From a virus (Duplodnaviria > Heunggongvirae > Uroviricota > Caudoviricetes), in IMG/VR virus record IMGVR_UViG_2872152978_000012: a stretch of 18,927 nt of DNA; one strand, written 5' to 3'. The position numbers were made by a program, and so were the translations under genes. Within the stretch, counting starts at the first letter, position 1. The number at the start of each line of letters is the position of its first letter. The notes below the pieces were generated by a model. The model worked only from the letters and a program-made list of their open reading frames with translations, was not told where the DNA came from and made no database searches. Of this stretch, positions 5,348 through 10,043 are shown piece by piece.

Positions 5348-5418
5348 GTAAGCGTACAGCCTGAACCGTCTGGTCAGAATCTGATGAATTAGACAAAGTG
5401 GTGTCCACCAAATAAGTA

Positions 5419-5820
5419 GTGGGAACCAAAGTGTCAGATATGCAGAAAAATGTGAATCCCGGCAGGCGAAAAGGCTGCCCTAATTATCCTCCCGAATTTA
5501 AACAGCAGCTCGTTGCTGCCTCCTGTGAACCCGGGATATCCATCTCAAAACTTGCTCTTGAAAATGGCATTAACGCCAATCTGTTGTTCAAATGGCGACA
5601 ACAATGGCGCGAGGGAAAGCTGCTATTACCTTCTTCAGAGAGCCCCCAGCTACTTCCTGTGACTCTCGATGCAGCTGCCGAACAGCCAGAATCGCTCGCA
5701 GAGGATCCGGAAACCCTCAGTATCAGCTGTGAGGTAACGTTCCGGCACGGGACGCTCCGCTTCAATGGCAATGTCAGCGAAAAGCTCCTGACTCTGCTGA
5801 TACAGGAACTGAAGCGATGA
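5419..5820 (+). CDS. IS66-family accessory protein OrfA (TnpA)
   Basis: About 130 aa with a helix-turn-helix region (...ISISKLALENGINANLLFKWRQQWREG). The start may be GTG 5419 or ATG 5440. Its stop overlaps the orfB start (ATGA at 5817). Confidence 0.8.
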   Translation: MGTKVSDMQKNVNPGRRKGCPNYPPEFKQQLVAASCEPGISISKLALENGINANLLFKWRQQWREGKLLLPSSESPQLLPVTLDAAAEQPESLAEDPETLSISCEVTFRHGTLRFNGNVSEKLLTLLIQELKR

Positions 5821-6164
5821 TCCCGTTACCTTCCGGGACCAAAATTTGGCTGGTTGCCGGTATCACCGATATGAGAAATGGCTTCAACGGCCTGGCGGCA
5901 AAGGTGCAGACGACGCTGAAAGACGCTCCGATGTCAGGTCACGTTTTTATCTTCCGTGGGCGTAATGGCAGTCAGGTAAAGCTCCTCTGGTCTACCGGCG
6001 ATGGACTGTGTCTGCTGACCAAACGGCTGGAGCGCGGCCGCTTCGCCTGGCCGTCAGCCCGGGATGGCAAAGTGTTCCTCACACCGGCACAGCTGGCGAT
6101 GCTCCTTGAAGGTATCGACTGGCAGCAGCCTAAAAGACTGCTTACGTCCCTGACTATGTTGTAA
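5817..6164 (+). CDS. IS66-family OrfB (TnpB)
   Basis: 115 aa with the characteristic N-terminus MIPLPSGTKIWLVAGITDMRNGFNGLAAKVQ, translationally coupled to orfA. Confidence 0.85.
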   Translation: MIPLPSGTKIWLVAGITDMRNGFNGLAAKVQTTLKDAPMSGHVFIFRGRNGSQVKLLWSTGDGLCLLTKRLERGRFAWPSARDGKVFLTPAQLAMLLEGIDWQQPKRLLTSLTML

Positions 6165-6212
6165 GCCTCTTTATCCTGGTCGACGCTGAATGAGCCTGGT
6201 AATATACCCGGT

Positions 6213-7750
6213 ATGAGCAGCTCACTTCCTGACGATATCAATGCACTGAAACGTCTCCTTGCCGAACAGGAGGCGCTGAACCGTGCCCTGCTGGAAAAGC
6301 TGAACGAGCGTGAACGCGAAATAGACCATCTGCAGGCACAGCTGGATAAGCTGCGCCGGATGAACTTCGGCAGCCGCTCCGAAAAAGTCTCCCGTCGTAT
6401 CGCACAGATGGAAGCTGACCTGAAGGCACTTCAGAAAGAAAGTGATACCCTTACCGGTCGGGTTGACGACCCGGCCGTGCAGCGCCCGCTGCGTCAAACC
6501 CGCACCCGCAAACCGTTCCCCGAATCACTCCCCCGCGATGAAAAACGGCTGCTGCCGGCAGCGTCATGCTGCCCGGAATGTGGAGGCTCACTGAGCTATC
6601 CGGGTGAGGATGCCGCCGAACAGCTGGAGTTGATGCGCAGCGTCTTCCGGGTTATCCGGACTGTACGTGAAAAGCATGCCTGTACTCAGTGCGATGCCAT
6701 CGTGCAGGCCCCCGCGCCTTCACGGCCCATCGAGCGGGGTATCGCAGGACCGGGGCTGCTGGCCCGCGTGCTGATCTCAAAGTATGCAGAGCACACCCCG
6801 CTGTACCGCCAGTCTGAAATGTACGGCCGCCAGGGCGTGGAGCTGAGTCGTTCACTGCTGTCGGGCTGGGTGGATGCATGCTGCCGGCTACTGTCACCGC
6901 TGGAAGAAGCGCTTCAGGACTATGTGCTGACTGACGGTAAGCTCCATGCGATGACACGCCTGTCCCGGTGCTGTTGCCAGGCAATAAGAAAACGAAGACC
7001 GGGCGGTTATGGACCTACGTTCGTGACGACCGTAACGCCGGGTCAACGCTGGCGCCGGCGGTGTGGTTCGCTTACAGCCCGGACAGAAAAGGCATCCATC
7101 CGCAGACCCATCTTGCGGGGTTCAGTGGTGTACTGCAGGCGGATGCATACGCCGGGTTCAACGAGCTGTACCGGGATGGCCGGATAACGGAAGCCGCCTG
7201 TTGGGCTCACGCCCGCCGTAAAATCCACGATGTGCACGTTCGCACCCCGTCAGCCCTGACGGAGGAAGCGCTGAAACGGATCGGCGAACTGTACGCCATC
7301 GAGGCAGAGATAAGGGGAATGACGGCGGAGCAGCGCCTTGCCGAACGTCAGTTGAAAACGAAACCGCTGCTGAAATCCCTGGAAAGCTGGCTGCGTGAAA
7401 AGATGAAAACCCTGTCGCGACACTCAGAACTGGCGAAAGCGTTCGCATACGCCCTGAACCAGTGGCCGGCGCTGACGTACTATGCAGATGATGGCTGGGC
7501 TGAGGCGGACAATAACATCGCTGAAAATGCGTTGCGGATGGTCAGTCTGGGCCGCAAAAACTACCTGTTCTTCGGTTCGGATCATGGAGGAGAGCGGGGA
7601 GCGCTGCTGTACAGCCTGATCGGGACGTGCAAACTGAACGGAGTGGAGCCAGAAAGCTACCTCCGCTATGTCCTTGACGTCATAGCCGACTGGCCGATAA
7701 ACCGGGTCGGCGAACTGCTCCCCTGGCGCGTAGCACTGCCGACTGAATAA
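6213..7750 (+). pseudogene. IS66-family transposase TnpC, inactivated by a 1-bp deletion near 6949
   Basis: The ORF track splits it into 6213-7187 and 6968-7750. Copy 1 reads gcg-atgac where copy 2 (reverse complement of about 8380) reads gct-gatgac. Restoring one base joins ...[33 protein letters not shown]... into a single TnpC of about 512 aa. Confidence 0.8.
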
Positions 7751-7787
7751 CACATCCCCGTCAATACGGTTCTTGCTGCACGCTTAC

Positions 7788-7872
7788 GCCCGTTGAAAGA
7801 CTTACGCATATCGGTTATCCCAGCAACGAGCCAGATGCGGGTGCCTGACGGGAGTGAGATCATCGTCCCCAC
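7788..7872 (-). pseudogene. IS66-family orfB, 5' fragment only
   Basis: Only the first ~28 codons are native. The rest of ORF 7666-7872 is read-through into the copy-1 right end. Confidence 0.7.
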
Positions 7873-8279: not shown

Positions 8280-8361
8280 AACAGGTGTCCACTAGTTGAA
8301 AAGGTGGGCACCTACGTTACCAATACAGGCTTAATGGCTACATACGGCGGTCAGTTTACGC

Positions 8362-9120
8362 TTACGGGACAGGCGTGTCATCAGCATGGAGCTTACCGTC
8401 AGTCAGCACATAATCCTGAAGCGCTTCTTCCAGCGGTGACAGTAGCCGGCAGCATGCATCCACCCAGCCCGACAGCAGTGAACGACTCAGCTCCACGCCC
8501 TGGCGGCCGTACATTTCAGACTGGCGGTACAGCGGGGTGTGCTCTGCATACTTTGAGATCAGCACGCGGGCCAGCAGCCCCGGTCCTGCGATACCCCGCT
8601 CGATGGGCCGTGAAGGCGCGGGGGCCTGCACGATGGCATCGCACTGAGTACAGGCATGCTTTTCACGTACAGTCCGGATAACCCGGAAGACGCTGCGCAT
8701 CAACTCCAGCTGTTCGGCGGCATCCTCACCCGGATAGCTCAGTGAGCCTCCACATTCCGGGCAGCATGACGCTGCCGGCAGCAGCCGTTTTTCATCGCGG
8801 GGGAGTGATTCGGGGAACGGTTTGCGGGTGCGGGTTTGACGCAGCGGGCGCTGCACGGCCGGGTCGTCAACCCGACCGGTAAGGGTATCACTTTCTTTCT
8901 GAAGTGCCTTCAGGTCAGCTTCCATCTGTGCGATACGACGGGAGACTTTTTCGGAGCGGCTGCCGAAGTTCATCCGGCGCAGCTTATCCAGCTGTGCCTG
9001 CAGATGGTCTATTTCGCGTTCACGCTCGTTCAGCTTTTCCAGCAGGGCACGGTTCAGCGCCTCCTGTTCGGCAAGGAGACGTTTCAGTGCATTGATATCG
9101 TCAGGAAGTGAGCTGCTCAT
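8362..9120 (-). pseudogene. IS66-family tnpC, N-terminal 252 codons only
   Basis: Identical to the N-terminus of copy-1 TnpC up to ...KLHADDTPVP, then a stop supplied by the inserted IS66 end. Confidence 0.85.
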
Positions 9121-9168
9121 ACCGGGTATATTACCAGGCTCATTCAGCGTCGACCAGGATAAAGAGGC

Positions 9169-9516
9169 TTACAACATAGTCAGGGACGTAAGCAGTCTTT
9201 TAGGCTGCCGCCAGTCGATACCTTCAAGGAGCATCGCCAGCTGTGCCGGTGTGAGGAACACTTTGCCATCCCGGGCTGACGGCCAGGCGAAGCGGCCGCG
9301 CTCCAGCCGTTTGGTCAGCAGACACAGTCCATCGCCGGTAGACCAGAGGAGCTTTACCTGACTGCCATTACGCCCACGGAAGATAAAAACGTGACCTGAC
9401 ATCGGATCGTCTTTCAGCGTCGTCTGCACCTTTGCCGCCAGGCCGTTGAAGCCATTTCTCATATCGGTGATACCGGCAACCAGCCAAATTTTGGTCCCGG
9501 AAGGTAACGGGATCAT
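9169..9516 (-). CDS. IS66-family OrfB (TnpB), copy 2
   Basis: 115 aa, two substitutions relative to copy 1 (A to D, Q to R). Confidence 0.8.
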   Translation of the reverse strand: MIPLPSGTKIWLVAGITDMRNGFNGLAAKVQTTLKDDPMSGHVFIFRGRNGSQVKLLWSTGDGLCLLTKRLERGRFAWPSARDGKVFLTPAQLAMLLEGIDWRQPKRLLTSLTML

Positions 9517-9914
9517 CGCTTCAGTTCCTGTATCAGCAGAGTCAGGAGCTTTTCGCTGACATTGCCATTGAAGCGGAGCGTCCCGTGCCGGAACGTTACC
9601 TCACAGCTGATACTGAGGGTTTCCGGATCCTCTGCGAGCGATTCTGGCTGTTCGGCAGCTGCATCGAGAGTCACAGGAAGTAGCTGGGGGCTCTCTGAAG
9701 AAGGTAATAGCAGCTTTCCCTCGCGCCATTGTTGTCGCCATTTGAACAACAGATTGGCGCTAATGCCATTTTCAAGAGCAAGTTTTGAGATGGATATCCC
9801 GGGTTCACAGGAGGCAGCAACGAGCTGCTGTTTAAATTCGGGAGGATAATTAGGGCAGCCTTTTCGCCTGCCGGGATTCACATTTTTCTGCATATCTGAC
9901 ACTTTGGTTCCCAC
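9513..9914 (-). CDS. IS66-family OrfA (TnpA), copy 2
   Basis: 133 aa, one substitution relative to copy 1 (N to S). Confidence 0.8.
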   Translation of the reverse strand: MGTKVSDMQKNVNPGRRKGCPNYPPEFKQQLVAASCEPGISISKLALENGISANLLFKWRQQWREGKLLLPSSESPQLLPVTLDAAAEQPESLAEDPETLSISCEVTFRHGTLRFNGNVSEKLLTLLIQELKR

Positions 9915-10043
9915 TACTTATTTGGTGGACACCACTTTGTCTAATTCGTCAGATTCTGACCAGACGGTTCAGGCTGTACGCTGATATGACTTTCCGTGTC
10001 AAACCGGAATCTCTAATTTTGACGATTTTCTTTTTAGGTTTAA

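Follow-up and report, generated by a model that had tools for sequence, protein, structure and literature searches.

The viral record IMGVR_UViG_2872152978_000012 (18,927 nt, the whole stretch of DNA that was analysed, hereafter the window) carries, between positions 5348 and 11505, a nested cluster of insertion sequences (IS): two inverted copies of the IS66-family element ISEc22 enclose a fragment of a second IS66-family element, and the outer tip of one copy is split by the IS110-family element ISSso6. We consider it very probable that this cluster is an IS scar in a decayed lambdoid ipaH prophage, left by nested insertions and a large deletion, and that its inverted arms serve as a substrate for homologous recombination. 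The window is 100% identical over 18927 nt to a Shigella chromosome (CP026840, locus L007). The cluster itself is inert, the result of ordinary IS-driven decay involving elements already catalogued, and its products are dispensable to the cell. No record spanning the whole cluster was returned by megablast against complete E. coli genomes, a comparison with a phage collection gave generic IS66 matches only, and the literature searched held no description of it.

Anatomy of the cluster

The features on which the argument rests are as follows.

4273-5347, - strand: tail-fibre gene stf without its first 62 nt (match stops at position 10949 of L001)
5348-7787, + strand: ISEc22 copy 1, full length, 2440 bp (end-to-end alignment to the intact 2441-bp ISEc22)
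5440-5820, 5817-6164 and 6213-7750, + strand: tnpA, tnpB and tnpC (with a 1-bp deletion) of copy 1, by NCBIfam IS66 TnpA/TnpB/TnpC
6949-6950, + strand: site of the absent T (ISEc22 nt 1603), by which tnpC is frameshifted into open reading frames (ORFs) of 324 aa and 260 aa
5351-6966, + strand: left inverted-repeat arm (ISEc22 nt 4-1620)
6967-8365, no strand: segment enclosed by the arms, made up of the 3' part of copy 1 and the second-element fragment
7788-8365, - strand: second element, nt 1-578, 99.3-99.5% identical to full-length copies
8365 and 8279-7860, - strand: left inverted repeat (IRL) tip and tnpA of the second element, followed by the first 76 nt of its tnpB (comparison with full-length copies)
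8366-9982, - strand: ISEc22 copy 2, the right arm, nt 1620 down to nt 4 (alignment)
9893-9513, 9516-9169 and 9120-8362, - strand: tnpA (as called in sister genomes), tnpB and truncated tnpC (252 aa) of copy 2
9983-11502, - strand: ISSso6 (IS110 family, IS1111-like), in the IRL of copy 2, 99.7-99.9% identical to RefSeq ISSso6
11503-11505, - strand: displaced terminal 3 nt of copy 2 (GTA; TAC on the + strand), read from the junction
11506-11565, + strand: 3' remnant of a Rac-like DUF1482 gene, collinear with enteroinvasive E. coli (EIEC) O121 (L002, from 7003)

A repeat search placed the arms of the inverted repeat at 5351-6949 and 8384-9982. In a gapped alignment (5348-7787 against the reverse complement of 8366-9990) they widen to 5351-6966 and 8366-9982 and differ by five substitutions (5385, 5573, 5926, 6124, and 6920) and one indel, i.e., an identity of ~99.6%. 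The original prediction, made from the letters of the window, had described two inverted copies of one IS66-family element (at about 99% identity) around a fragment of another, with no intact transposase. The alignment establishes that the two arms are the same element in inverted orientation, and the cluster in the window holds no whole tnpC. The invertible segment, proposed as 6950-8365, needs its bounds moved to 6967-8365.

Copy 1 differs from an intact ISEc22 of an enterotoxigenic E. coli (ETEC) plasmid (CP024241; L003 1502-3942) by 11 mismatches and one absent T; it begins with GTAAGCG and finishes with CGCTTAC. The earlier description of a full-length copy with a 1-bp tnpC deletion near 6949 agrees with this alignment, in which the T is missing after 6949. 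Putting the T back in silico gives an uninterrupted TnpC of 512 aa with zero internal stops, so the frameshift is the sole lesion of copy 1. The name ISEc22 follows RefSeq, used as a proxy for the ISfinder reference (at least 95% nucleotide identity over the full length): the top hits are annotated there as "IS66-like element ISEc22", and over 2441 nt copy 1 reaches 99.5% identity to one of them. The three-gene set of IS66, with a tnpC of the DDE_Tnp_IS66 type, is present (NCBIfam NF047595/NF038385, NF033819, and NF033517, with both halves of the TnpC of copy 1 recognised; Pfam PF05717, PF03050, and PF13817 on the called genes). The same ETEC plasmid bears two intact inverted ISEc22 copies around a 384-bp gspE fragment (L003 1502-6767). 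A Logan contig (L011) proved to hold a separate ISEc22 copy at another locus and was uninformative.

No target duplication brackets copy 1. The final 8 bp on the stf side, GAATAATC (5340-5347), abut the ISEc22 IRL, and the right flank reads GCCCGTTG; the two differ, as had been claimed, and we attribute the missing 8-bp duplication to a deletion. The truncated stf is 99.3% identical to an intact gene of EIEC FDAARGOS_944 (L001, coding sequence 9746-11011).

The second element is a distinct member of the family (~63% nucleotide identity and ~64% TnpC identity to ISEc22). A full 2506-bp copy lies between nimT and nimR in EIEC FDAARGOS_943 (L004 4001-6506), flanked by the 8-bp duplication AGCTAAAA; RefSeq offers no specific name for it and NCBIfam only "IS66 family". 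Both internal junctions had been read correctly: at 7787/7788 the second element breaks 76 nt inside its tnpB (orfB), and at 8365/8366 its GTAAGCG tip (- strand), with 8365 as the outermost base, meets ISEc22 nt 1620 in tnpC of copy 2. A full second element in dicB (L021/L024), considered as the ancestor of the fragment, turned out to be a separate insertion.

GTAAGCG tips stand at 5348-5354 and, as CGCTTAC, at 7781-7787 and 8359-8365; the junctions coincide with termini of the family, as had been described. The tip of copy 2 is in two pieces, ...AGCG up to 9982 and GTA at 11505-11503. Its outer end had been placed at 9983, but base 9983 is the first of ISSso6, an element that had been overlooked and that splits the terminal repeat after nt 3, so that 9983 is no natural terminus of copy 2. 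The true outer flank is TGTTATCC at 11506, within the Rac-like DUF1482 gene. As a mechanical ORF, tnpA of copy 2 spans 9914-9513. An internal CGCTTAC also occurs in tnpC of copy 1 (7069-7075), preceded by T (not A/G) and free of ISSso6.

A natural inversion isomer

A dozen related chromosomes were retrieved by protein look-ups with IpaH and with the 252-aa TnpC fragment that is specific to the junction; an exact-protein look-up of this fragment was also the only route to the source chromosome. One of them, CP026828 (L009), has flanks collinear with the window while 5351-9982 aligns reversed, giving the order stf, truncated ISEc22 copy, second-element fragment, full ISEc22 (with an intact 512-aa TnpC), and ISSso6. 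The arms had been proposed as a substrate for homologous inversion, and here the central segment is found flipped between collinear flanks. The flipped state was seen in one of the eight sampled assemblies that retain both arms; the orientation of the window recurs in CP026807, CP026832, CP026825, CP026823, and CP045784. Three characters place the window genome as basal (the 25-bp deletion described below, a third ISEc22, and an IS3-family insertion in ISSso6 are all absent from it), and it shares its orientation with these other sisters; we therefore take this orientation as ancestral and CP026828 as flipped once.

The arms of CP026828 differ at a single site (in the window, by five substitutions and an indel), with alleles reshuffled between the copies, which argues for gene conversion rather than a clean crossover. 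An attempt to map the crossover from single-nucleotide differences between the arms was abandoned, as the arms have been homogenised and no single reciprocal exchange fits. Five assemblies carry the 1-bp deletion at nt 1603, and CP045784 and CP026828 lack it (both have an intact 512-aa TnpC); it recurs in the third ISEc22 copy of CP026832 (L008 1388-3826). The cluster thus occurs both with and without the frameshift.

Given that both orientations occur naturally, the inverted repeats might be read as a programmed invertible switch with a regulatory role. We regard such a role as almost inconceivable: an invertase or other site-specific recombinase for it is absent, the arms are merely IS copies, the flipped DNA consists only of the 3' part of tnpC and the second-element fragment, its neighbours are a truncated stf and a further IS, and only the one assembly shows the flipped state. 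An assembly artefact of the repeated IS copies would be another explanation of the whole structure, since repeats of 1.6-2.4 kb are error-prone in assembly and single-base indels differ between assemblies. However, the same junctions recur in at least eight complete chromosomes that are independent and span more than one accession series (CP026807, CP026840, CP026832, CP026828, CP026825, CP026823, and CP045784, together with the derived CP026834), and we judge an artefact to be very improbable.

Deletions and recent transposition in the clade

Tips of the IS66 type mark the ends of further losses in this clade. Six sister genomes (L006, L008, L009, L010, L022, and L025) have lost 25 bp, beginning exactly at the tip of the right inverted repeat (IRR) of copy 1 and corresponding to second-element nt 554-578; the site, 7788-7812, is kept in the window. 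In CP026834 (L023 13660-13680), window position 5339 is joined to 8366 (...TTTCA-GGGACAGG..., the hyphen marking the junction), i.e., GAATAATC (8 bp of the stf flank) and the 3018-bp unit 5348-8365 are gone. We considered CP026834 as an "empty site" and ruled this out: GAATAATC is genuine stf sequence (L001), and the CP026834 state is therefore derived. The loss ends on one side precisely at the second-element tip and on the other 8 nt, the duplication length of the family, beyond the ISEc22 tip. Strand transfer that joined one tip to a position 8 nt past its partner would leave such a loss. On this more tentative reading, two unlike IS66-type tips can act in concert, and IS66-family transposition might pass through a circle or figure-eight intermediate.

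A third ISEc22 copy with a perfect 8-bp duplication, GAAGGAGC, is present in sister genomes (L008/L009), where the window holds the empty site (14350-14357, in an IS600 fragment); ISEc22 has thus moved recently in the clade. This duplication and that of the second element in L004 document the 8-bp target duplication for both elements.

Proposed history of the cluster

We propose the following course of events. ISEc22 would first have landed in the prophage, and a second IS66-family element would then have entered the tnpC of that copy at nt 1620. A further ISEc22 would have come to abut nt 578 of the second element, after which a single deletion, with its limits in the DUF1482 gene and at codon 21 of stf, may have taken out the remainder of both interrupted elements along with the whole prophage interior, leaving ISEc22 left ends facing outward at both sides. 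Later, ISSso6 would have entered the outer tip of the ISEc22 copy on the Rac side by site-specific insertion. At present, the 1.6-kb arms would serve as a substrate for host homologous recombination, presumably dependent on RecA, by which the 1.4-kb centre flips and gene conversion homogenises the arms, and the IS66-type tips would still trigger transposase-like deletions.

An IS-mediated adjacent deletion had been named as the cause of the missing stf 5' end and upstream tail genes. The loss of the stf 5' end and of the prophage interior is real; as to the mechanism, an adjacent deletion is indistinguishable from homologous recombination between direct copies. Three routes, i.e., an adjacent deletion driven by the left end, one driven by the right end, and RecA-dependent recombination of direct copies, yield the same product, and we give transposase-driven and homology-driven deletion roughly equal weight. 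In the first route, copy 1 inserted initially into tnpB of the second element, and its left end drove an adjacent deletion (intramolecular transposition) as far as stf. The missing target duplication of copy 1, the losses that start at IS66-type tips in the clade (25 bp at the IRR of copy 1; 8 bp plus 3018 bp in CP026834), and the recent activity of ISEc22 are all in its favor. However, the literature searched holds no experimental record of adjacent deletion for IS66-family elements, and the same product would come from a right-end-mediated deletion by a copy that was first in stf, or from RecA-dependent recombination between an stf-resident copy and a direct copy in the second element; we hold the left-end route to be possible, at somewhat under an even chance. 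Recombination between two independent direct insertions of ISEc22, in stf and in the second element respectively, would have deleted the DNA between them and left copy 1 as a hybrid. This accounts for the mismatched flanks by host recombination alone, in a clade that recombines and converts its ISEc22 copies (several per genome), but it requires one insertion event more than the adjacent-deletion model, and an ISEc22 insertion in stf only was not seen among the 10 sampled island variants. We find it similarly conceivable, again falling a little short of an even chance.

Several points weigh against the history proposed here. No nesting intermediate (e.g., a complete second element within ISEc22) was found among the sampled genomes, and the succession of insertions and losses is therefore reconstructed. 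The flipped state is known from a single assembly and might reflect misassembly; moreover, the allele pattern of its arms is unlike a simple reciprocal crossover from any sampled ancestor. The 1-bp deletion is found mostly in the CP0268xx accession series (CP026832 is a PacBio sequence, the others are presumed to be the same), and because of this bias and of the second occurrence in CP026832, the variant may have been copied between repeats by assembly polishing. It was either spread by gene conversion or copied in this way.

ISSso6 and its target

ISSso6 encodes a DEDD transposase (DEDD_Tnp_IS110 plus Transposase_20; NF033542, E = 2e-81; PF01548 and PF02371) and carries 264 nt of non-coding DNA downstream of the transposase gene, compared with 127 nt upstream. 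Its parts in the window are listed below.

11375-10248, - strand: transposase gene
10247-9984, - strand: 3' non-coding region
9986-9998 and 11483-11495: 13-bp subterminal inverted repeats
10187-10181, - strand: candidate guide block 1, AGCGCTT, complementary to AAGCG(T/C)T
10152-10142, - strand: candidate guide block 2, ACGTAAGAAAG, which contains GTAAG

With hyphens marking the junctions, the insertion in copy 2 reads ...GTACGCT-GATATGAC...CATACTGC-CTTAC-TGTTATCC, with CT at both junctions (9981-9982 and 11501-11502), a shared core beyond which no target sequence is duplicated. Ten independent ISSso6 sites were compared: the one in the window, three in CP026807, and others in EIEC chromosomes, in pINV plasmids, and in CP026731 (loci including L006, L012-L017, and L021). 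All have the form (A/G)CGCT-ISSso6-CTTAC in a single orientation, giving the insertion motif CGCT^TAC. Eight of the ten are left or right tips of ISEc22 or of second-element relatives; the remaining two are chance occurrences of the octamer, one in a sopA-like gene and one beside an IS91 fragment. The right flank of ISSso6 is the same in two EIEC chromosomes (L012 and L013) and the IS66-family right ends at its left are different. Other IS110-family elements (one unnamed, one ISShdy1-like; L005 3011-4024, hit H94) adjoin the left tip of second-element relatives, the tip being uninterrupted.

An exact 20-mer from the right end of ISSso6 was found in 40 stretches of species-representative genomes, mostly of Paraburkholderia and allied genera; these relatives (L028-L067) come from Paraburkholderia, Caballeronia, Burkholderia, Trinickia, and others. 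In all but two of the 40, the 20-mer is followed by CT and then by assorted flanks. When the 3' non-coding regions of ISSso6 and its relatives are aligned, a conserved scaffold is interrupted by two blocks that vary. Block 1 (AGCGCTT in ISSso6, CTAAAC and GGACTA in two classes of relatives) corresponds, as reverse complement, to the core together with one flank, and it matches its own target in the three classes for which the other flank is available. Block 2 is the other flank plus the core (GTAAG in ISSso6; GAACAAG, TTTAG, GCCCAG, and GAAAAG in relatives) and matches its own flank in ISSso6 and in four further target classes. The two ISSso6 blocks jointly spell GTAAGCG(T/C), and the one position at which the target varies is accounted for by a G facing T or C. 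In a shuffle test, both 5-mers occurred in the correct order in 183 of 20000 shuffled sequences (0.9%). No bridge RNA family was matched in ISSso6 by an Rfam scan at the gathering threshold.

From this covariation, we lean, at slightly better than an even chance, towards ISSso6 being an RNA-guided IS1111-type element whose candidate guides spell GTAAGCG(T/C), and which would home into the ends of IS66-family elements, cut off the terminal 3 bp, and probably disable the end. The literature searched (ISfinder lay outside its scope) contained nothing linking ISSso6 to IS66 ends, and no description of such an "IS against IS" relationship was found there.

Prophage and chromosomal setting

The remaining features of the window lie to either side of the cluster.

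277-936: pphA
1365-1547, - strand: CssrB, a Shigella chromosomal small RNA (sRNA), upstream of ipaH (Rfam)
1676-3391: ipaH, intact
14299-14713, + strand: IS600 5' fragment, 415 bp
about 14714-15990, - strand: IS911
about 16402-17665, - strand: full IS600
18322-18465: RyeA/SdsR sRNA locus (Rfam SraC/RyeA-SdsR/RyeB pair), the chromosomal edge of the prophage, followed by yebY

A tail-fibre assembly gene lies between ipaH and the truncated stf. Beyond the DUF1482 remnant come a ydaG-like gene, a truncated recE, gam, IS600/IS911 debris, and an integrase fragment; the debris at 14299-17665 forms a second inverted-IS arrangement, the source of a 415-nt inverted repeat. Late genes run leftward toward ipaH and early genes rightward toward int, and each side keeps one prophage end. 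These gene directions fit a single lambdoid prophage, and the cluster would therefore replace its whole interior: the island reads as one decayed lambdoid ipaH prophage extending from pphA to ryeA/sdsR-yebY, genes that are neighbours in E. coli K-12. The chromosomal flanks are collinear on both sides, which argues that the lost prophage DNA was deleted and not inverted away, and the backbone is the same in the less-occupied Shigella variants L019 and L027.

Comparison with known systems

Both ISEc22 copies belong to the ISEc22 / ISEc8 / IS679 group of the IS66 family, IS679 reportedly being the subject of a 2001 study by Han et al. in J Bacteriol. They share with this group the GTAAGCG termini, the tnpA-tnpB-tnpC organization, and the 8-bp duplication, but copy 1 carries a 1-bp deletion in tnpC and has no duplication, and copy 2 is truncated at nt 1620 and has its tip split by ISSso6.

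Nested inverted IS copies that replace prophage DNA, as well as structural variation from strain to strain, are in keeping with the IS expansion and decay of Shigella (Hawkey et al. 2020, PMC7373316). That study scored no IS66-family element but ISEc8, and ISSso6 only in S. sonnei, whereas the present cluster occurs in a clade that includes S. dysenteriae 14 ATCC 49346 (CP026832, a sister of the window sequenced by PacBio; PMC10132075). The cluster is thus one more case of IS-driven prophage decay in Shigella, of small importance in itself. However, the natural series of window, flipped, excised, and micro-deleted states displays the fate of 1.6-kb inverted IS copies over a short evolutionary time, and it holds a warning for annotation, as an IS66 end that lacks its last 3 nt may be split by ISSso6 instead of truncated.

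ISSso6 finds its closest parallels among other IS1111 and IS110 elements. In the account given in PMC11187229, the IS1111-family elements IS4321/IS5075 have as their target the 38-bp terminal repeats found in transposons of the Tn21 family (Partridge & Hall 2003); like ISSso6, these are IS1111-type elements with subterminal repeats and a fixed position and orientation in the terminal repeat of another element, whereas the target of ISSso6 is the IS66-family terminal octamer GTAAGCG(T/C). Subterminal inverted repeats and a long downstream non-coding region are hallmarks of the IS1111 subgroup (PMC11187229), and seekRNA- or bridge-RNA-guided IS1111 and IS110 elements include ISEc11, ISKpn4, and IS621 (Siddiquee et al. 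2024, PMC11187229), where ISSso6 itself appears only in a transposase-sequence table and an identity matrix. ISSso6 resembles these systems in its long 3' non-coding region, in having naturally retargeted relatives, in the position of the top-strand match 5' of the bottom-strand match, and in the overlap of the two at the insertion point. Its candidate guides, unlike those of the seekRNA elements, are deduced from sequence covariation. ISSso6 would represent a clear natural case of a seekRNA/bridge-RNA element retargeted onto the terminus of another transposon, with relatives that carry different guides.

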